A stretch of 64,000 nt of DNA, taken from NCBI GenBank assembly GCA_964016885.1, contig OZ024743.1, positions 375,038,001-375,102,000 of the forward strand, read 5' to 3'. This document shows positions 1,291 through 14,057 of this stretch, in pieces. The notes beneath the pieces were generated by a model that was not told where the DNA came from, made no database searches, and worked only from the letters and a program-made list of their open reading frames with translations. Every line of letters begins with the position of its first letter. Within the stretch, counting starts at the first letter, position 1. Origin of the DNA: Eledone cirrhosa. Taxonomy: Eukaryota. The position numbers and the translations under genes are program-made.

Positions 1291-1326
<36 letters not shown>
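1291..1326. repeat. (AGAT)n tract at the 3' end of Tx1 copy 1
   Basis: Directly visible. Confidence 0.95.
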
Positions 1327-1327
<1 letters not shown>

Positions 1328-1591
1328 TATTTCTTTTATTTGCCACTAGGGCATCAAAAGTGGGACAAGTACAAAGGGGGGAGTTTACACAAAAAGGCGT
1401 CCTCAATAAGGAGGAGGCAATAACAAAATATAAAAATAAAATAAGATATAACAAAAAATAAAATTTTTAACAAAATCCTCAATAGAGAGGAGGCGCCTTG
1501 GGGGGTCGCACACACCCCCGAAAAAAGTGTGCAACCCTTCTCCTCAGGAGCACAGAGAAGGGGTGCTCCCTTGGTCTTTCATCTTCCTCAC

Positions 1592-4500
1592 CTATAGTCT
1601 GATGTAGAGTGAAGGCCCATTCACACGGGCCATTCTCGCCACTTTCACCCATCTTTCATAGAAACGGCTGGGGTGCAGCACCTCTCTCTCCATCCTGATC
1701 CTTCTTCCGAAATGATATCGGAAGAAACGGACCAGTTGTTGGCCAGAGAGAAAGGTGCCCGACCTCAGTCCTTTCAGACGCGTCCACCATACAACCTCTT
1801 TCGCCATGGCTATTACGCACAGAAACACCGCCTCTGCTTCATCTTTGAAGGGGGGAGGCGGCTTGATCATTACAATAGACTCGGTGGTCAACCGGATCGG
1901 TCCCACCCTTGACAGCAGTTGTTCGACATAGCCCCACAGATCGGCTACGCCCGAGCAGTGTACTAATGCGTGTGCAACGGTTTCCTCGTCGCACACGCAT
2001 CTGGGACAGATCTTTTTGGCGGGGTCCCTACCCGGGCGCCCGTGTCTGTAGAGCCTTTCTCGAACGGGTAAAGCCCCTCGGTAGCACTGCCAGGCCAGGG
2101 ACTTCTGGAAGTTGTCCATAGGTCCCGGGCTGAATGTCCTACCGAAAAGGCTGGCCAGTTCGTCCTCCTCCATGTCTAGGGCTTCTCCGAGGGCGTCGTC
2201 GCACCTGCTGCGTACCAGCCCTCTATAGAATGTTGCGGTGGAGTCTCCACTGATAACCGGATCCGCCTGCCAGAGGGCGGTGAGCGCCTGGGCACACTCA
2301 GTGTGCCAGGCGCCCAGTTTTCTCGGTCTTTGCTTGACCCAGGATTGCAGCTCGGTGAGTGAGACGAGTCTGGGAAAGGTTCGTCTCACAAACGAGGCCC
2401 ACACCGGTTGTCCGGTGAGGAATACGTAGAGGTGCCGTAGCCTTAATGCGTGTTTACGCATCATTAGCCACGGCATCCCCAGCCCTCCTTTCGAAGGGTG
2501 TTGACAGCAGATGGATCTCCTCACCATAGGAGCCCGCCTCTTCCAAAGGAATTGGAAGAGCGCGCGCTCCATCTTGGTGAGGGTTTCCCTTGGGCAGGGC
2601 ACTACGGTCAGGCGGTAGTAGATGACGGACGCTATGTAGGTGTTCGCCACCTCCGCCCGACCTTTCAGGGATAGTTTGCAACTGGCCCACTTCTGGGTCA
2701 GTGCAAACACTCTGTTCGTAACCTCCGCCCAGTTTTTCTCCACCTGGAGGTCCGGTCCGAACCAGACCCCGAGCAACTTCACCGGGCCCTCCGTCCAGCG
2801 TCCGACGACGCTATCGGAGGGCATCGGTCTGCCCCTCCACGTGCCGAGTTGCAAACCGATCGACTTGTCCCGGTTCAGCTTAGCCCCTGTGAACTTTTCG
2901 TACTCCTCCAGTAAGGTGCCGACCGCCTCGATTTCGGAGGCCGTCGACACCATTACTGTCACGTCATCGGCGTAGGCCGACACCGCTTTCCGCAATCCCG
3001 GTTCCAAAGGGATGCCCTGCAACAACTCCAACTTCCGCAGTAGTGGCTCGAGAGTCAATACATACAGAAGGGAGGAGAGAGGGCACCCTTGTCGGATGGA
3101 CCGCGCGATTTTGAACGGCTCCGAGAGGTAGCCGTTCACCTTGACCCTAGAGCAGATGCGGCTGCTGTGCATAGCAGTGATCCAGCCCCTGAAAACGGGT
3201 CCGAAGCCTGCCGCCGCTAGCACCGCATCCAGGTAACCATGGTCGACCCTATCGAACGCCTTAGATTGATCCAAGTTGATCAGAGCCCCACCAAAGCCGG
3301 GTTCGTTCCCAACCCTCTCTATGATGTATCGCATGAGGTGGAGGTTGTCATGGATGGACCTGGACGGGATAGCGCATGTCTGCGCATCTCCCACCAGGTT
3401 GCCCACGACAAGCGCCAACCTCTTTGCTAGCACCTTGGCCAAAATCTGTAACTCTGTATTTAGCAGTGTTATGGGCCTGAAGTTACTTATTTCGTCCCCC
3501 TTGTTCTCGTCCTTCCTCACTAGCGTGACTACGCCCTTGGTCACAGTACAGGGAATTCTCCCGTTCTGTTGCCAGTTGCAGTAGACCGCCTCGAGGAGAT
3601 CGGGGAACAAGTCCGGCATAGCTAGATATAATTCGTAAGGAAGACCATCGAGACCCGGGGATTTGCGTTTGCCGCATTGGCTCAGCACGTCCTCTATCTC
3701 AGCGGCCGAAATCGGCTCCTCGCAGGACTTCGCCTCCCTGTCCGAGAGGCGCGGCAGGCCGTCGAGGTATGGACCGAAGTCCACGTTCCCAACCGGCTCC
3801 CCGCCCCTCCCGAACAGTCGGGCAAAGTGCCTTTGAAAGGCCTCACACATCCGCTTAGGCTCAAGAATCGCCCGTCCATCCAGGTCTCGCAAAGACCGGA
3901 TGGTGGATTTAGTTCCACTGTTGGCCTCTGTCACGCGGGCCCAGCTAACAGCTTTGGTCCCCTCGTTCCCTAGAGCACGTATTTTACTTCGGACAACGCA
4001 GCCTTCGTGCTTCGCGTCGAAAAACTGGCTCAAAGCCGTTCTCGACGCTAGCACTCTGGCCACGTCGCCGCTTCTAATTGCCTCTTCTACTCTATCTATT
4101 AGCTCCCTTTCCTTCCTATTCCTATCCGCAGCTAGAACCTTACTAAATTCTATCGAGACTACTCTAATCTCTCTCTTTAGAGATACCCACCACCTGCTGT
4201 TGACGATCGCTCCAGTCAACCGTTCCTTAACTAACGTACTAATCCGATTCCTGTAGGCTCTACTTGCCGGCAAGGACAAGTTGAGCTTCCAGTAACCGGG
4301 GCCCTGTCTATGAGTTCTGTCAAGGTTGACCATGCAGGTCACTAATTTGTGGTCTGAATAGCCAACAATGCGCATTTTTGGACAACTTAAAAAGTCCTTA
4401 TCCTTAATTCTAACTAAGAACCTATCTAGGTACGACCTAGATGATCCGCTACGATTTGCCCAAGTCCAGGTTGGCGCAGTCGGAAAGTCTAGTCGATATC

Positions 4501-5029
4501 TATCGGCCAGGTCAAATCGACCGATTAACCCTTTGAGGCTATTACACCCCTCTCTATCGGGGCAGGCCCCTACGTAGTCCCAGCGTGCATCTAGGATACC
4601 ATTCCAGTCCCCCACTAATAGCAAGGAGCGGGACGTCCCTAGAAAAGTCTCCAGACGATGGAAGAAGTCCGGCCGCATTGACCCGAAAGGGCCGTAGGCG
4701 GCTACCAACCTAAACGCTCCGCCTTTACCACTGCCAAGGTCCAGAACCACTAGTCGACCCTCCGGGTCCAAATGTACCATCTGTGTTGCGAGACCCAGAT
4801 GTTTTTGCAGCAGAACGACAACTCCACCCCCACCTCCAGGCTGACAGAGAGATGCGTGCATCTCAAAGTCATCAAAGGTGGGGGCCAGCTGTCGCACGTT
4901 GCTGATCCGGGCCTCGCAAATAACCATCACATCTATACGTTGTGACCTGAGGTCATTTAGAAGCATTGCTTGCTTCCAAGTTGAGCCCAGGCCACGCGCA
5001 TTTAAACAGCCTACTCTTAGCATAGCCAT
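1592..5029 (-). CDS. Tx1-type ORF2: APE endonuclease, reverse transcriptase, C-terminal Zn finger; intact
   Basis: APE motifs GCLNARGL, GDWN, SYLDRF, SDH. RT motifs KSPGLDG, FRPITLLN, DQSKAFDRV, RQGCPLS, YADD. CPRC..H...C finger. First ATG at 5029 (track ORF opens at GTG 5053). Confidence 0.93.
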   Translation of the reverse strand: MAMLRVGCLNARGLGSTWKQAMLLNDLRSQRIDVMVICEARISNVRQLAPTFDDFEMHASLCQPGGGGGVVVLLQKHLGLATQMVHLDPEGRLVVLDLGSGKGGAFRLVAAYGPFGSMRPDFFHRLETFLGTSRSLLLVGDWNGILDARWDYVGACPDREGCNSLKGLIGRFDLADRYRLDFPTAPTWTWANRSGSSRSYLDRFLVRIKDKDFLSCPKMRIVGYSDHKLVTCMVNLDRTHRQGPGYWKLNLSLPASRAYRNRISTLVKERLTGAIVNSRWWVSLKREIRVVSIEFSKVLAADRNRKERELIDRVEEAIRSGDVARVLASRTALSQFFDAKHEGCVVRSKIRALGNEGTKAVSWARVTEANSGTKSTIRSLRDLDGRAILEPKRMCEAFQRHFARLFGRGGEPVGNVDFGPYLDGLPRLSDREAKSCEEPISAAEIEDVLSQCGKRKSPGLDGLPYELYLAMPDLFPDLLEAVYCNWQQNGRIPCTVTKGVVTLVRKDENKGDEISNFRPITLLNTELQILAKVLAKRLALVVGNLVGDAQTCAIPSRSIHDNLHLMRYIIERVGNEPGFGGALINLDQSKAFDRVDHGYLDAVLAAAGFGPVFRGWITAMHSSRICSRVKVNGYLSEPFKIARSIRQGCPLSSLLYVLTLEPLLRKLELLQGIPLEPGLRKAVSAYADDVTVMVSTASEIEAVGTLLEEYEKFTGAKLNRDKSIGLQLGTWRGRPMPSDSVVGRWTEGPVKLLGVWFGPDLQVEKNWAEVTNRVFALTQKWASCKLSLKGRAEVANTYIASVIYYRLTVVPCPRETLTKMERALFQFLWKRRAPMVRRSICCQHPSKGGLGMPWLMMRKHALRLRHLYVFLTGQPVWASFVRRTFPRLVSLTELQSWVKQRPRKLGAWHTECAQALTALWQADPVISGDSTATFYRGLVRSRCDDALGEALDMEEDELASLFGRTFSPGPMDNFQKSLAWQCYRGALPVRERLYRHGRPGRDPAKKICPRCVCDEETVAHALVHCSGVADLWGYVEQLLSRVGPIRLTTESIVMIKPPPPFKDEAEAVFLCVIAMAKEVVWWTRLKGLRSGTFLSGQQLVRFFRYHFGRRIRMEREVLHPSRFYERWVKVARMARVNGPSLYIRL

Positions 5030-5053
5030 GTTGGTGGTGAAGAGAAAAGGCAC

Positions 5054-6835
5054 TTACCTCTCTGCGTCCCGGGTATCGGGCTGCACAATTTCCATTAGGG
5101 TGGGGGATGGGTTGTTGGGTGGGGTGGTGGTTTGTGGAAGTGTGGGGGCATCAGTGTGTTGTGTGGTTGGGGAGCTTGGAGTTGTGAGGGTGTTTGGGGA
5201 GGGGGTGGGATAGTTTTTTAGGAGGACTCGGTTAATGGGCCCGACGCAGGGGGGACCCACGTCCTCTTTAAAATTGTTTTTTAAAGTTTTATAGGTGTCC
5301 TGTGGGGCCTTAATCATTTTGAGGTGGGGGAAATCCCCTGCCTGGGTGAAGTTAGGCCCTTGTGTTTTTATTAGATTGTTGTTGTACACAATGTTTAACA
5401 GTTTTTTGTTTCTTGTATTTATGTATGTGTATGCATGTTTTTGTTTTTGTGTGGTGTTTTTTGTTTGCTGTTGTGAGCTCTTTTGTGTTGGTGTCAGTGT
5501 TATGTTTTGGGGAGGGGTTTTTTTCATTTGTGTGTCTGAGGTGTGTTTTCTTTTTTTTCTTTTGATTGTGTGGAAGTGCTCCTCCTCGTCTGACGACGAA
5601 CTAGGGTCATCTTCCGCGTTGGAGGGGAGGGGTATATTTTCGGGTTGTGTTTGCGGTACGGGTGTTTTGGAAATTGTTTTTGTTTTTTGAGTGGAGGGGA
5701 TGGGTTGGACATTGTTTTGTTTTGGTTTGAGCTGTGGTGGTTGTTTTTGTGGTGGTTGTTGTGGTGATTGTGTTGGTTGTGCAGTTGTTGGTGGTGTAGG
5801 CAGGATTGGGGTTTTCTTATTAAGTTGGGGACAGACAGCCCTCAGGTGACCTCTGGTTCCGCAGAGGTAACACGAGGGCCGTCTACCCTCAACGGTAATG
5901 TTGATGAAGGTTAGATCATCCAGTATGACGCGTTCAGGGATCTGGGCGATCCTTTCGGGCCTCATTTGAACTACAAGTTCGAGGCTCGTTCCACTGAACG
6001 CGTCACCCGATGCCTTTCCCATGGACACCAGCATGTCATCCTCCAGGTCCAGAAAACCTGTCAAAACCCACCATATGTCCATAATCGGCAGGATGGTGTG
6101 GATTTTTATTTTTTGTGTTCTTCTACCCATGTACGTAGGGTAGAAGGTGTATGCGGTGGATGTGATTGGTTTGATGGACAGTTTCACTGCTGTGTCCCTG
6201 TCCTTCATGAGAATGGATAGACTCCCGTAGAGTCTATCCTTCTGAATGAAGGTGATGTCCTTCATGACGTCTTTTAAAACCAGCTCTATCTCGCTCTGTG
6301 ATGGTTGAGCTGGTTTTTTACTTTTGTTCGAGATTGTCCTAAACATGACCGTGTTTAGGAGTCTCTGGCTTTTTAGTTCCGGGGGGGAATGGATTGTGAA
6401 TGAACCATTTTCCCCGTACACTATATATTTTTTCGCATCCGCCAGTAGCTCCTTCGCTTTTGTTATATCTACTGGCAGATAGTCGAGGGTTTTCCTTGTC
6501 GTCTCGGCGAAGGAGAAATTTTGTTTGTTTGTGTTGTTGTTGTCGTTGGTGGTGTTGTTGTTATCATTGTTGTTGTTGTCACCGTTATTGGTCTTGTTGT
6601 TGTTATTGTTATTGTTATTGGTGTTGTTTTCTACCGTCGCATTGTTGTTGTTGTTGCTGTTGGTTCTTTGGGTTGTTGCCATGGTAACGTCAAGTTGTCG
6701 GTTAACAGGTGGAGAGAATTCTTCCTCTGGCTGACCTATCTTCTTGACCTCTGCTACTGTGACAGTGGCAGGGGGAAGCTGTAAGTTCATCTTCCCCTTT
6801 CCTCCTTCGAATTTTGGTGAAGAAGCTTCGGCCAT
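5054..6835 (-). CDS. Tx1-type ORF1 (gag-like), 593 aa, one CCHC zinc knuckle
   Basis: CYLCGTRGHLRAVC (Cx2Cx4Hx4C); N-terminal poly-Asn; Q/P/T/K-rich C-terminal half; directly upstream of ORF2. Confidence 0.88.
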   Translation of the reverse strand: MAEASSPKFEGGKGKMNLQLPPATVTVAEVKKIGQPEEEFSPPVNRQLDVTMATTQRTNSNNNNNATVENNTNNNNNNNNKTNNGDNNNNDNNNTTNDNNNTNKQNFSFAETTRKTLDYLPVDITKAKELLADAKKYIVYGENGSFTIHSPPELKSQRLLNTVMFRTISNKSKKPAQPSQSEIELVLKDVMKDITFIQKDRLYGSLSILMKDRDTAVKLSIKPITSTAYTFYPTYMGRRTQKIKIHTILPIMDIWWVLTGFLDLEDDMLVSMGKASGDAFSGTSLELVVQMRPERIAQIPERVILDDLTFINITVEGRRPSCYLCGTRGHLRAVCPQLNKKTPILPTPPTTAQPTQSPQQPPQKQPPQLKPKQNNVQPIPSTQKTKTISKTPVPQTQPENIPLPSNAEDDPSSSSDEEEHFHTIKRKKRKHTSDTQMKKTPPQNITLTPTQKSSQQQTKNTTQKQKHAYTYINTRNKKLLNIVYNNNLIKTQGPNFTQAGDFPHLKMIKAPQDTYKTLKNNFKEDVGPPCVGPINRVLLKNYPTPSPNTLTTPSSPTTQHTDAPTLPQTTTPPNNPSPTLMEIVQPDTRDAER

Positions 6836-7047
6836 TTAAAAAAATATTGACTTTTCAACAAGAAAAAACTTTTTTTTTTAACTATTTCGCCTAAAGGCGT
6901 AGAATATTTTGAGAGACTGACCAGATCAAAGTTTGACCTGGCAGTCCCTCTACAAAATGGTACAAAAATTAAAGTTATCAGACAAGAATTTCTATAGAAA
7001 TTTAAACAGAACTTACTCAGCAAGTTATACGCGTGTGTCCATCCCAG

Positions 7048-7103
<56 letters not shown>
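7048..7103. repeat. (GATA)n tract between Tx1 copies 1 and 2
   Basis: Directly visible. Confidence 0.95.
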
Positions 7104-7104
<1 letters not shown>

Positions 7105-10100
7105 TGTTTCTTTTATTTGCCACCAGGGCATCAAAAGTGGGACAAGTACAATGGGGGGAGTTTACAAAACAAGGCGTCCTCAATAAGGAGGAGGCAATAA
7201 CAATATATAAAAATAAAATAAAATATAACAAAAAATAGAATTATAACAAAATCCTCAATAGAGAGGAGGCGCCTTGGGGGGTCGCGCACACCCCCGAAAA
7301 AAGTGTGCAACCCTTTTCCTCAGGAGCACAGAGAGGGGGTGCTCCCTCGTTCCTTCCTCTTTTCCACCTACAGGCTTATGTAAAGAGAAGGCCCATTCAC
7401 ACGGGCCATTCTCGCCACTTTCACCCATCTTTCATAGAAACGGCTGGGGTGCAGCACCTCTCTCTCCATCCTGATCCTTCTTCCGAAATGATATCGGAAG
7501 AAACGGACCAGTTGTTGGCCAGAGAGAAAGGTGCCTGACCTCACTCCTTTCAGACGCGTCCACCATACAACCTCTTTCGCCATGGCTATTACGCACAGAA
7601 ACACCGCATCTGCTTCATCTTTGAAGGGGGGAGGCGGCTTGATCATTACAATAGACTCGGTGGTCAACCGGATCGGTCCCACCCTTGACAGCAGTTGTTC
7701 GACATAGCCCCACAGATCGGCTACGCCCGAGCAGTGTACCAATGCGTGTGCAACGGTTTCCTCGTCGCACACGCATCTGGGACAGATCTTTTTGGCGGGG
7801 TCCCTACCCGGGCGCCCGTGTCTGTAGAGCCTTTCTCGAACGGGTAAAGCTCCTCGGTAGCACTGCCAGGCCAGGGACTTCTGGAAGTTGTCCATAGGTC
7901 CCGGGCTGAATGTCCTACCGAACAGGCTGGCCAGTTCGTCCTCCTCCATGTCTAGGGCTTCTCCGAGGGCGTCGTTGCACCTGCTGCGTACCAGCCCTCT
8001 ATAGAATGTTGCGGTGGAGTCTCCACTGATAACCGGATCCGCCTACCAGAGGGCGGTGAGCGCCTGGGCACACTCAGTGTGCCAGGCGCCCAGTTTTCTC
8101 GGTCTTTGCTTGACCCAGGATTGCAGCTCGGTGAGTGAGACGAGTCTGGGAAAGGTTCGTCTCACAAACGAGGCCCACACCGGTTGTCCGGTGAGGAATA
8201 CGTAGAGGTGCCGTAGCCTTAATGCGTGTTTACGCATCATTAGCCACGGCATCCCCAGCCCTCCTTTCGAAGGGTGTTGACAGCAGATGGATCTCCTCAC
8301 CATAGGAGCCCGCCTCTTCCAAAGGAATTGGAAGAGCGCGCGCTCCATATTGGTGAGGGTTTCCCTTGGGCAAGGCACTACGGTCAGGCGGTAGTAGATG
8401 ACGGACGCTATGTAGGTGTTCGCCACCTCCGCCCGACCTTTCAGGGATAGTTTGCAACTGGCCCACTTCTGGGTCAGTGCAAACACCCTGTTCGTAACCT
8501 CCGCCTAGTTTTTCTCCACCTGGAGGTCCGGTCCGAACCAGACCCCGAGCAACTTCACCGGGCCCTCCGTCCAGCGTCCGACGACGCCATCGGAGGGCAT
8601 CGGTCTGCCCCTCCACGTGCCGAGTTGCAAACCGATCGACTTGTCCCGGTTCAGCTTAGCCCCTGTGAACTTTTCGTACTCCTCCAGTAAGGTGCCGACC
8701 GCCTCGATTTCGGAGGCCGTCGACACCATTACTGTCACGTCATCGGCGTAGGCCGACACCGCTTTCCGCAATCCCGGTTCCAAAGGGATGCCCTGCAACA
8801 ACTCCAACTTCCGCAGTAGTGGCTCGAGAGTCAACACATACAGAAGGGAGGAGAGAGGGCACCCTTGTCGGATGGACCGCGCGATTTTGAACGGCTCCGA
8901 GAGGTAGCCGTTCACCTTGACCCTAGAGCAGATGCGGCTGCTGTGCATAGCAGTGATCCAGCCCCTGAAAACGGGTCCGAAGCCTGCCGCCGCTAGCACC
9001 GCATCCAGGTAACCATGGTCGACCCTATCGAACGCCTTGAGATTGATCCAAGTTGATCAGAGCCCCACCAAAGCCGGGTTCGTTCCCAACCCTCTCTATG
9101 ATGTATCGCATGAGGTGGAGGTTGTCATGGATGGACCTGGACGGGATAACGCATGTCTGCGCATCTCCCACCAGGTTGCCCACGACAAGCGCCAACCTCT
9201 TTGCTAGCACCTTGGCCAAAATCTGTAACTCTGTATTTAGCAGAGTTATGGGCCTGAAGTTACTTATTTCGTCCCCCTTGTTCTCGTCCTTCCTCACTAG
9301 CGTGACTACGCCCTTGGTCACAGTACAGGGGATTCTCCCGTTCTGTTGCCAGTTGCAGTAGACCGCCTCGAGGAGATCGGGGAACAAGTCCGGCATAGCT
9401 AGATATAATTCGTAAGGAAGACCATCGAGACCCGGGGATTTGCGTTTGCCGCATTGGCTCAGCACGTCCTCTATCTCAGCGGCCGAAATCGGCTCCTCGC
9501 AGGACTTCGCCTCCCTGTCCGAGAGGCGCGCCAGGCCGTCGAGGTATGGACCGAAGTCCACGTTCCCAACCGGCTCCCTGCCCCTCCCGAACAGTCGGGC
9601 AAAGTGCCTTTGAAAGGCCTCACACATCTGCTTAGGCTCAAGAATCGCCCGTCCATCCAGGTCTCGCAAAGACCGGATGGTGGATTTAGTTCCACTGTTG
9701 GCCTCTGTCACGCGGGCCCAGCTAACAGCTTTGGTCCCCTCGTTCCCTAGAGCACGTATTTTACTTCGGACAACGCAGCCTTCGTGCTTCGCGTCGAAAA
9801 ACTGGCTCAAAGCCGTTCTCGACGCTAGCACTCTGGCCACGTCGCCGCTTCTAATTGCCTCTTCTACTCTATCTATTAGCTCCCTTTCCTTCCTATTCCT
9901 ATCCGCAGCTAGAACCTTACTAAATTCTATCGAGACTACTCTAATCTCTCTCTTTAGAGATACCCACCACCTGCTGTTGACGATCGCTCCAGTCAACCGT
10001 TCCTTAACTAACGTACTAATCCGATTCCTGTAGGCTCTACTTGCCGGCAAGGACAAGTTGAGCTTCCAGTAACCGGGGCCCTGTCTATGAGTTCTGTCAA

Positions 10101-12442
10101 GGTTGACCATGCAGGTCACTAATTTGTGGTCTGAATAGCCAACCATGCGCATTTTTGGACAACTTAAAAAGTCCTTATCCTTAATTCTAACTAAGAACCT
10201 ATCTAGGTACGACCTAGATGATCCGCTACGATTTGCCCAAGTCCAGGTTGGCGCAGTCGGAAAATCTAGTCGATATCTATCGGCCAGGTCAAATCGACCG
10301 ATTAACCCTTTGAGGCTATTACACCCCTCTCTATCGGGGCAGGCCCCTACGTAGTCCCAGCGTGCATCTAGGATACCATTCCAGTCCCCCACTAATAGCA
10401 AGGAGCGGGACGTCCCTAGTAAAGTCTCCAGACGATGGAAGAAGTCCGGCCGCATTGACCCGAAAGGGCCGTAGGCGGCTACCAACCTAAACGCTCCGCC
10501 TTTACCACTGCCAAGGTCCAGAACCACTAGTCGACCCTCCGGGTCCAAATGTACCATCTGTGTTGCGAGACCCAGATGTTTTTGCAGCAGAACGACAACT
10601 CCACCCCCACCTCCGGGCTGACAGAGAGATGCGTGCATCTCAAAGTCATCAAAGGTGGGGGCCAGCTGTCGCACGTTGCTGATCCGGGCCTCGCAAATAA
10701 CCATCACATCTATACGTTGTGACCTGATGTCATTTAGAAGCATTGCTTGCTTCCAAGTTGAGCCCAGGCCACGCGCATTTAAACAGCCTACTCTTAGCAT
10801 AGCCATGTTGGTGGTGAAGAGAAAAGGCACTTACCTCTCTGCGTCCCGGGTATCGGGCTGCACAATTTCCATTAGGGTGGGGGATGGGTTGTTGGGTGGG
10901 GTGGTGGTTTGTGGAAGTGTGGGGGCATCAGTGTGTTGTGTGGTTGGGGAGCTTGGAGTTGTGTGGGTGTTTGGGGAGGGGGTGGGATAGTTTTTTAGGA
11001 GGACGAGGTTAATGGGCCCGACGCAGGGGGGACCCACGTCCTCTTTAAAATTGTTTTTTAAAGTTTTATAGGTGTCCTGTGGGGCCTTAATCATTTTGAG
11101 GTGGGGGAAATCCCCTGCCTGGGTGAAGTAAGGCCCTTGTGTTTTTATTAGATTGTTGTTGTACACAATGTTTAACAGTTTTTTGCTTCTTGTATTTATG
11201 TATGTGTATGCATGTTTTTGTTTTTGTGTGGTGTTTTTTGTTTGCTGTTGTTGTGAGCTCTTTTGTGTTGGTGTCAGTGTTATGTTTTGGGGAGGGGTTT
11301 TTTTCATTTGTGTGTCTGAGGTGTGTTTTCTTTTTTTTCTTTTGATTGTGTGGAAGTGCTCCTCCTCGTCTGACGACGAACTAGGGTCATCTTCCGCGTT
11401 GGAGGGGAGGGGTATATTTTCGGGTTGTGTTTGCGGTACGGGTGTTTTGGAAATTGTTTTTGTTTTTTGAGTGGAGGGGATGGGTTGGACATTGTTTTGT
11501 TTTGGTTTGAGCTGTGGTGGTTGTTTTTGTAGTGGTAGTTGTGGTGATTGTGTTGGTTGTGCAGTTGTTGGTGGTGTAGGCAGGATTGGGGTTTTCTTAT
11601 TAAGTTGGGGACAGACAGCCCTCAGGTGACCTCTGGTTCCGCAGAAGTAACACGAGGGCCGTCTACCCTCAACGGTAATGTTGATGAAGGTTAGATCATC
11701 CAGTATGACGCGTTCAGGGATCTGGGCGATCCTTTCGGGCCTCATTTGAACTACAAGTTCGAGGCTCGTTCCACTGAACGCGTCACCCGATGCCTTTCCC
11801 ATGGACACCAGCATGTCATCCTCCAGGTCCAGAAAACCTGTCAAAACCCACCATATGTCCATAATCGGCAGGATGGTGTGGATTTTTATTTTTTGTGTTC
11901 TTCTACCCATGTACGTAGGGTAGAAGGTGTATGCGGTGGATGTGATTGGTTTGATGGACAGTTTCACTGCTGTGTCCCTGTCCTTCATGAGAATGGATAG
12001 ACTCCCGTAGAGTCTATCCTTCTGAATGAAGGTGATGTCCTTCATGACGTCTTTTAAAACCAGCTCTATCTCGCTCTGTGATGGTTGAGCTGGTTTTTTA
12101 CTTTTGTTCGAGATTGTCCTAAACATGACCGTGTTTAGGAGTCTCTGGCTTTTTAGTTCCGGGGGGGGGGGGGGGGGGAATGGATTGTGAATGAACCATT
12201 TTCTCCGTACACTATATATTTTTTCGCATCCGCCAGTAGCTCCTTCGCTTTTGTTATATCTACTGGCAGATAGTCGAGGGTTTTCCTTGTCGTCTCGGCG
12301 AAGGAGAAATGTTGTTTGTTTGTGTTGTTGTTGTCGTTGGTGGTTTGTTGTTATCATTGTTGTTGTTGTCACCGTTATTGGTCTTGTTGTTGTTGTTATT
12401 GTTATTGTTATTGGTGTTGTTTTCGTCCGTCGCATTGTTGTT
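7104..12442 (-). mobile_element. Tx1 copy 2, 5'-truncated within the ORF1 Asn repeat, inactivated
   Basis: Near-identical to copy 1; ORF1 start missing and poly-G expansion at ~12161-12178. Confidence 0.93.
7368..10830 (-). pseudogene. Disrupted ORF2 of Tx1 copy 2
   Basis: 1-bp insertion near 9039 (gccttGagattg vs gccttagattg); nonsense changes at 8505 (TGG>TAG) and 8043 (CAG>TAG). Confidence 0.9.

Positions 12443-12496
<54 letters not shown>
12443..12496. repeat. (GATA)n tract between Tx1 copies 2 and 3
   Basis: Directly visible. Confidence 0.95.
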
Positions 12497-12497
<1 letters not shown>

Positions 12498-13261
12498 TGT
12501 TTCTTTTATTTGCCACTAGGGCATCAAAAGTGGGACAAGTACAAAGGGGAGAGTTTACACAAAAAGGCGTCCTCAATAAGGAGGAGGCAATAACAAAATA
12601 TAAAAATAAAATTTATAACAAAATCCTCAATAGAGAGGAGGCGCCTTGGGGGGTCGCACACACCCCCGAAAAAAGTGTGCAACCCTTCTCCTCAGGAGCA
12701 CAGAGAAGGGGTGCTGCCTTGGTCTTTCATCTTCCTCACGTATAGTCTGATGTAGAGTGAAGGCCCATTCACACGGGCCATTCTCGCCACTTTCACCCAT
12801 CTTTCATAGAAACGGCTGGGGTGCAGCACCTCTCTCTCCATCCTGATCCTTCTTCCGAAATGATATCGGAAGAAACGGACCAGTTGTTGGCCAGAGAGAA
12901 AGGTGCCTGACCTCAGTCCTTTCAGACGCGTCCACCATACAACCTCTTTCGCCATGGCTATTACGCACAGAAACACCGCATCTGCTTCATCTTTGAAGGG
13001 GGGAGGCGGCTTGATCATTACAATAGACTCGGTGGTCAACCGGATCGGTCCCACCCTTGACAGCAGTTGTTCGACATAGCCCCACAGATCGGCTACGCCC
13101 GAGCAGTGTACCAATGCGTGTGCAACGGTTTCCTCGTCGCACACGCATCTGGGACAGATCTTTTTGGCGGGGTCCCTACCCGGGCGCCCGTGTCTGTAGA
13201 GCCTTTCTCGAACGGGTAAAGCTCCTCGGTAGCACTGCCAGGCCAGGGACTTCTGGAAGTT
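12497..13261 (-). mobile_element. Tx1 copy 3, severely 5'-truncated (~765 bp)
   Basis: 3'UTR plus ORF2 Zn-finger tail; ORF2 stop changed TAG>TAC; followed by GATA tract 13261-13290. Confidence 0.92.
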
Positions 13262-13594
13262 AGATAGATAGAGAGATAGATAGATAGATAAAATTGAACT
13301 CGGGACATCAGGATTTGAATCAGGTTGTGTTAGTGTCTGGGTTTAAGAGTGGCGCGTCAGGTGCAACAGGTGCGGCAACGTCACGTGAGCAGAAGTGTAA
13401 AACGAGATATCCTGTTTCTTCATGGAAATGTGTCTGTGAGTGGGCATGTGTCTGTCAATGGACGTGTGTCAGCGAACTCCTGCGAAACACAACATTTCTG
13501 GCCAGAATTTTGGGTTGAGTATGTTTCATGGATTACACAGTTAGACAAGAGTGACGGTCAGGGAAGACCAGCAAGTTAAGCAATTTTACGTTTC

Positions 13595-14057
13595 TCATCT
13601 TCTTCTACTTATTCTTCGCCCACTTATTCCTGAGAGGGTTGTGGGGGAAGAGTCCTCAAACACTCCTTCCAACGGGTCCTGTCAGAAGCAACCGTCTCCA
13701 ACTGATCCAGCAAGATCCCCAAGTGAGACCAGCCAAGCTCATAGATGTTATCCAACCATCTCGCTCGGGGTCTACCCCTGGGTCTCCTGCCAGTTGGTTT
13801 TGCTTATAAAATCTGTCCAGCGATTCTTTCCTGAGACATTCCAACCACTTGTCCTTGGTATTGGAGCTGTGATCGCTCTATTTGGAGAAGTAGCGGCTCT
13901 ACCTGGAGTGACTCTCTGATCTCCGAGCTACACACTCTATAGAGTAACATTACTCCGAAGACCCTTTGGAGGAACTCCATTTCGGCTGCTTGTAATCGCG
14001 TTCGTATTCTTTCGGTCATTACCCAAGATTTATGATCATAGGTAAAGGTTGGCACCT
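13595..14057 (-). mobile_element. RTE-clade (Rex3/Expander-like) LINE 3' fragment
   Basis: PTFTYDHKSWVMTERIRTRLQAAEMEFLQR...VEPLLLQIERSQL, then GRPRARW; 3' end cccccacaaccc...ataagtgggcgaagaa. Confidence 0.8.

Follow-up and report, generated by a model that had tools for sequence, protein, structure and literature searches.

The locus raises the question of why three copies of one LINE should lie one behind another with GATA repeats at every junction. In the 64 kb window (the whole stretch of DNA that was analysed), all three copies were found on the minus strand, separated and bounded by GATA tracts. Copy 1 (1328-7047) is full length, with 5,720 bp and with ORF1 and ORF2 both open. Copy 2 (7105-12442), 98.5% identical to copy 1, is 5'-truncated within the AAC-rich start of ORF1 and has a broken ORF2 (a 1-bp frameshift near 9039, together with stop codons), and copy 3 (12498-13261), 96.2% identical to copy 1, comprises the 3' 760 bp only. 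The tracts, read on the plus strand, are (GATA)9 abutting the 3' end of copy 1 (1292-1327), (GATA)14 separating the 5' end of copy 1 from the 3' end of copy 2 (7048-7104), (GATA)13 between copies 2 and 3 (12443-12497) and, past the truncation point of copy 3, an outer tract of seven units with one GAGA interruption (13262-13290). These coordinates and tract counts bear out the first-pass annotation, which had described three co-oriented copies with GATA at all four junctions, the truncation of copies 2 and 3 at different points that each abut the repeat (at 12443-12497 and 13262-13290), and no element beyond the outermost tract. The four tracts are the only ones with at least three GATA or TATC units in the window; (TA)n is abundant elsewhere in it. 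A poly(G) run in copy 2 (12161-12178) is 18 long, against 7 in copy 1, and the ORF1 frame is shifted. Just right of the array (13576-14000) lies a different, very high-copy repeat, for which contigs in runs X1, X5 and X6 show very high depth.

An array of this kind could have arisen by tandem or segmental duplication, or as an assembly artefact, and segmental duplicates of single insertions do exist elsewhere in the genome (L240/L241 and L247/L248). The three copies, however, differ in length, and over its full length copy 1 has 5 substitutions relative to the copy L234 on a different contig and 60 relative to copy 2. Its 3' 783 bp are identical to four loci elsewhere, whereas copy 2 differs from them by 28 mismatches and copy 3 by 8 mismatches and 22 gap bases. 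Because copy 1 is nearer to copies on other contigs than to copy 2, the array is not a duplication; the three copies are separate insertion events, and a duplicated or misassembled array is extremely improbable. The segmental duplication against which the first-pass annotation had cautioned was thus not found. The sequencing-run contigs that were searched for the array locus break at the repeats.

ORF2 (1592-5029, minus strand; 1,145 aa) carries, in residues 1-235, an APE endonuclease (NARG, E, Y, GDWN, D and SDH motifs), a reverse transcriptase (YADD at 686) and a C-terminal zinc knuckle, with Pfam matches to Exo_endo_phos, RVT_1 and zf-RVT. The closest solved protein was human L1 ORF2 (E = 6e-48; R2 at 1e-19), with which the catalytic APE residues line up. 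The best named protein relative was from Argonauta hians (63% identity over 44% of ORF2), which makes an octopod the likely host; neither Atlas nor cluster look-ups put a family name to ORF2. The endonuclease was also folded from its single sequence; the model had a pLDDT of 32 and was set aside. ORF1 (5054-6835, minus strand; 593 aa) has an Asn-rich start, a likely RRM region, one CX2CX4HX4C knuckle and a low-complexity tail; a Pfam search of it returned no match, Transposase_22 included, and its Atlas neighbours were zf-CCHC/RRM clusters at 0.89-0.92. The 3' UTR of copy 1 (1328-1591, minus strand) has AATAAA 14 nt before its end (1330-1344, minus strand), then (A)GAAA-TA and, at once, the TATC repeat. 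Poly(A) is absent from this 3' end, as had been noted before: the repeat follows the terminal GAAA-TA directly.

The stop codon of ORF1 lies within a splice-donor-like AG-GTRAGT motif (5052-5062, minus strand), next to a pyrimidine tract, an arrangement kept in sister families. The motif is also present in copy 2 (10829-10839, minus strand) and at loci L043, L101, L181, L183, L188, L189, L192 and L193. In nearly all sister families ORF1 ends as Arg-stop in the donor consensus, followed by a pyrimidine tract, 28-45 nt ahead of the ORF2 start, and the consensus variants GTAAGT, GTGAGT and GTAGGT represent all three stop codons. A spliced ORF1-ORF2 fusion through this motif was rejected: none of the 8 genome candidates (matches without the usual bases after the motif) was spliced, all being point variants or a small insertion, and an in-frame acceptor is absent from one family. 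Subfamily B (L043, L078, L087, L096, L107 and L170) has the ORF2 and 3' UTR of the window family and differs in its 5' UTR and ORF1; the changeover, near position 3939 of the element counted from its 3' end, suggests ORF1 replacement or recombination.

The family shows the features of the L1 group of APE-type elements, namely an N-terminal APE, a reverse transcriptase, a C-terminal Cys/His knuckle, no RNase H, and 5'-truncated copies with target-site duplications. In a quick, midpoint-rooted reverse transcriptase tree that left out Repbase Tx1, Kibi, Koshi and mammalian L1, it sat on its own deep branch, apart from plant L1, within a group of 63 rows (SH-aLRT 96) that also includes two proteins auto-named 'transposon TX1 149 kDa protein'. 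ORF2 is about 32% identical to vertebrate proteins auto-named Tx1. The ORF1 of the Tx1 clade has been described as carrying an RRM and a CCHC knuckle in place of Transposase_22 (PMC5203782), and the present ORF1 has the CCHC knuckle and lacks Transposase_22, the RRM being a lead only. Judged from protein sequence, membership of the Tx1 clade is likely rather than proven, because the tree held no Repbase family and the comparison was with auto-named proteins.

Copies were counted by pattern searches of the 3.0 Gb genome. A 28-nt pattern from the 3' UTR gave 3,485 matches and the terminal 26 nt of the element gave 3,479, which define exact 3' ends; the 5' end of subfamily A was matched 337 times. 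With two variable terminal bases allowed for, TAGATA stood directly before 2,735 of the 3,479 ends (79%), TATATA before 294 and neither hexamer before 450 (13%). With a slightly shorter element pattern, (GATA)3 was found ahead of 1,663 ends (about 48% of about 3,479), and (TATC)3, in the one phase tested, ahead of none genome-wide. Both the 48% for (GATA)3 and the 79% for TAGATA lie above the 20% of flanks that has been used to call Tx1 elements target-specific (PMC4494074). In 197.6 kb of element-free flank there were 466 TAGATA and 12,192 TATATA sites; against this background TAGATA is enriched about 670-fold at the 3' ends (about 570-fold with the window as background), and the per-site preference for TAGATA over TATATA is about 240-fold.

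The tabulation of both flanks took in 91 copies, which came from the initial 78 Mb of a single contig (C1) and belong to the first 100 listed; of the other nine, eight were not fetched and one lay within a neighbour's stretch. The last six flank bases were TAGATA in 73 copies, TATATA in 9 and other hexamers in 9; the junction ended in TA in 91/91, and TATC was found in the last 12 flank bases of none of the 91. At least three GATA units were present at the 3' junction of 37 copies and at most two at that of 54. The target is the 7-bp motif ATA(G/T)ATA, not the microsatellite as such, and since the motif is also used in (TA)n, in minisatellites and in unique DNA, the specificity is a strong preference and not a strict one. 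Of the (TATC)n-targeting family put forward in the first-pass annotation, the strand specificity held (2,735 of 3,479 ends after TAGATA, the reversed orientation never being seen), while the target itself shrank to a short motif that more than half of the tabulated copies (54/91) use with two GATA units or fewer. Six insertions lie in minisatellites with the motif in their unit (L051, L063, L076, L077, L231 and L247); at L247 the insertion sits at a TAGATA unit, most units there reading TAGACA.

A repeat at the 3' junction can also be made by the element itself, as it is in RTE or L2 families, and (TATC)n might be such a tail, with insertion at random and the 5' tracts being the tails of neighbours. 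The absence of poly(A), the 37 junctions with three or more GATA units and the 32 of 91 copies in which the 30 bp next to the 5' junction hold no GATA or TA repeat are all in keeping with this explanation. Yet such a repeat was found within that distance in the other 59, and it was present at the 5' break in 44 of the 71 truncated copies, as well as in 15 of the 20 full-length ones. The mostly unique 5' flanks that had been named in advance as fatal to targeting were therefore not what was observed. Moreover, 294 copies follow TATATA instead, and among those whose 5' side was tabulated (TA)n mostly recurs there. The 5' flank carried (GATA)2 in 46/73 TAGATA copies and in 6/49 TATATA copies (p = 1e-8), and (TA)4 in 31/49 TATATA copies against 5/73 TAGATA copies, so that the type of repeat in the 5' flank follows that in the 3' flank.

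Exact duplications of at least 10 bp were absent in 42/91 copies. Among the copies that lack a 5' repeat or such a duplication, some are duplications in unique DNA, some are later rearrangements and a few probably have wrong automatic boundaries. Non-simple duplications of at least 10 bp were found in 17/91 copies, compared with 94 of 8,190 mismatched flank pairs. A stricter search covered 151 copies (the 91 tabulated, 40 picked for TATATA and 20 picked by their 5' end), of which 25 were informative, and in 22 of these the duplication ends exactly at the element, with no tail. All 22 end in A-T-A-(G/T)-A-T-A (G in 15, T in 7), the next base is G in 14, and the net length is 11-21 bp in 20; two of the 22 represent one event that was duplicated, and four lie in minisatellites, where the length is unsure. 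In the remaining three informative cases, at minisatellite sites, the duplicate lacks the terminal 1-5 bases. Because the duplications end exactly at the element in ATA(G/T)ATA, no tail was added and the motif was present before insertion, and the supposition that insertions preserve their target was upheld. The explanation by an element-made tail is already largely refuted and is regarded as very improbable.

Array building, also foreseen in the first-pass annotation, extends beyond the window, since within 160 bp of the 5' junction 21/91 copies meet the 3' end of another family member. The family is young, because ORF2 is unbroken in 28 of 160 long loci. Random insertion followed by selective retention in harmless GATA tracts would be another route to such a distribution, and for Waldo of Drosophila, which lies near CA repeats, passive accumulation has been suggested (PMC3812793). 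Retention cannot, however, yield one phase together with one orientation, nor can it favour GATA 240-fold over the far commoner TA sites, and copies 99-100% identical to copy 1 already show the same junction; this explanation is barely conceivable. Pieces 99% identical to window positions 1328-7047, without the left flank, were also met in three runs labelled as other organisms (X5, X4 and X7), the piece in X5 being 1.6 kb long with 4 differences from the element; recent transfer, close relatives and contamination are candidate explanations.

Taken as a whole, the locus very probably represents an APE-type LINE family that has no tail and was active recently; its copies share a single orientation and immediately follow ATAGATA or, in fewer cases, ATATATA, and its endonuclease likely chooses the site by nicking the GATA-reading strand. 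The 3' ends adjoin ATA(G/T)ATA in a single orientation. By standard target-primed reverse transcription, the APE would nick at the motif or within a few bases of it and the freed 3' OH would prime synthesis, possibly with help from pairing between the target and a few bases resembling it at the 3' end of the RNA. As the duplications show, the second strand is cut about 15 bp away, which doubles the motif and places it on both sides of the insertion, truncated copies included. As the motif recurs every 4 bp in GATA tracts and is kept by each insertion, later copies of the window family and its sister families could enter the same tract and head-to-tail arrays would result. Finally, some full-length copies may bring extra GATA repeat with them. 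Such repeat was found between the 5' end and the duplication at L247/L248 (one event, 22 nt), at L078, where the site is pure (TA)n, and at L201/L203, which have a common interrupted GACA/GATA run and unrelated flanks. In these few cases carry-over from the upstream repeat of the donor is likely, which would seed a new target, and slippage in second-strand synthesis is also conceivable. Counting the 5' extensions of L240/L241 and of L247/L248 as separate events was rejected, both pairs being segmental duplicates.

Related 3' ends were matched 15,644 times in the genome, and among them a second clade was distinguished in which AATAAT stands before 8,318 of 9,671 3' ends. In 4 of the 5 full-length copies of this AAT clade that were examined, (AAT)n lies on both sides; the remaining 17 of 30 sampled related ends mostly follow GATA or TA. 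Head-to-tail arrays occur in the AAT clade too, as seen around loci L181, L183, L185 and L192 (contig C1). In quick reverse transcriptase trees the GATA families formed one clade and the AAT families another (SH-aLRT 98-99), both within an 8-row group (100). The endonuclease of the window copy is 65-88% identical to those of the GATA families and about 60% identical to that of the AAT family, and the 3' termini of the two clades are nearly alike. In the hairpin of residues 188-204, which is aligned to the L1 specificity loop, position 194 is Ser in all aligned GATA families and Ile in the AAT family; because 40% of sites differ between GATA and AAT endonucleases, it is a candidate only.

This sister pair bears on whether sites might instead be chosen mainly by pairing, with the 3' end of a read-through RNA (UAUC repeats from the donor flank) annealing at nicks made by a loosely AT-preferring endonuclease. 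The invariant TA at all 91 junctions, the terminal bases outside the duplicate in 3/25 cases and the lack of poly(A) speak for such pairing, and RNA-target pairing has been reported for R1Bm, R2Ol and the I factor and proposed for RTE (PMC6007223); the L1 endonuclease, moreover, is less strict when nicking in vitro than in integration (PMC1950540). Against it, the target type follows the protein tree, GATA in one clade and AAT in the other, despite the near-identical 3' termini, and the G bias at the base past the junction (14/22) lies beyond the reach of 3' end pairing. Site choice mainly by RNA pairing is accordingly considered unlikely. Enzyme choice and RNA pairing can, however, operate jointly. 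The last junction bases may come from the RNA, because TA is invariant and terminal bases are absent from the duplicate in those three cases, and the preferred reading, choice by the endonuclease, may leave room for pairing of the RNA end.

Among known systems, the closest are Kibi and Koshi, teleost Tx1-clade families with (TC)n and (TTC)n as targets, and the crocodilian Tx1 families that sit in (TTCC)n/(TTTC)n (Kojima 2015, PMC4494074). As far as these are described there, the window family resembles them in being an APE-type LINE with two ORFs, a simple-repeat site and several related families per genome with related targets. Unlike Kibi and Koshi, it likely resides in an octopod, and it targets GATA/TA (its sister clade AAT); no pyrimidine repeat, the target of the Kibi/Koshi lineage, is involved, the sites reading TATC/TA and ATT in element orientation. 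Waldo and Mino, of the R1 clade, target ACAY and AC repeats (PMC3812793), and are likewise APE-type elements with microsatellite targets; they differ in being insect elements of the R1 clade with other targets, the window ORF2 being L1/Tx1-like. TG is also among the known LINE microsatellite targets, and R4 is an RLE clade (PMC4640811). Dong, of the R4 clade, targets (TAA)n (PMC3812793), and Dong-R4 is active in Octopus vulgaris (PMC13282606). The AAT sister clade has the same repeat as Dong. It nevertheless carries an APE domain, whereas Dong presumably uses a restriction-like endonuclease, and since the endonuclease types differ, the common target would be convergent. In O. vulgaris, 13 recently active L1-Tx1 families with 421 insertions have been reported (PMC13282606). 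These are of the same class, likely in the same host group, and may include relatives of the window family; in the portion of that text searched for their targets, 'target' and 'GATA' occur 0 times. No literature report of a GATA or AAT target for Tx1-like LINEs was found, and Repbase, Dfam, subscription papers and the supplement of PMC4494074 could hold one.

With these results GATA and AAT join the target list of Tx1-like elements, and the list is extended to molluscs. Caution is called for with GATA and AAT markers here, which often flank multi-kilobase insertions. The choice of microsatellite targets by APE-type elements has been described as poorly understood (PMC3812793), and the retargeting of APE-type endonucleases is an engineering goal (PMC1950540). 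The determinants of APE targeting become testable here because two targets are used within a single genome by families that are closely related and apparently still mobile. Each target is represented by thousands of examples and many copies are intact; this pair of GATA and AAT sister clades is what makes the finding most useful. Beyond this, and more tentatively, a radiation of octopod Tx1-like LINEs may have split AT-rich microsatellites between an ATAGATA clade and an AATAAT sister clade, whose endonucleases still share about 60% identity and each of which has made thousands of insertions; full-length copies would also carry GATA to new sites, make their own target and help to shape the microsatellite landscape of the host. 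If this somewhat doubtful proposal is true, the pair would constitute a natural, high-count specificity switch, from which the residues that set the APE target could be mapped by domain or loop swaps.
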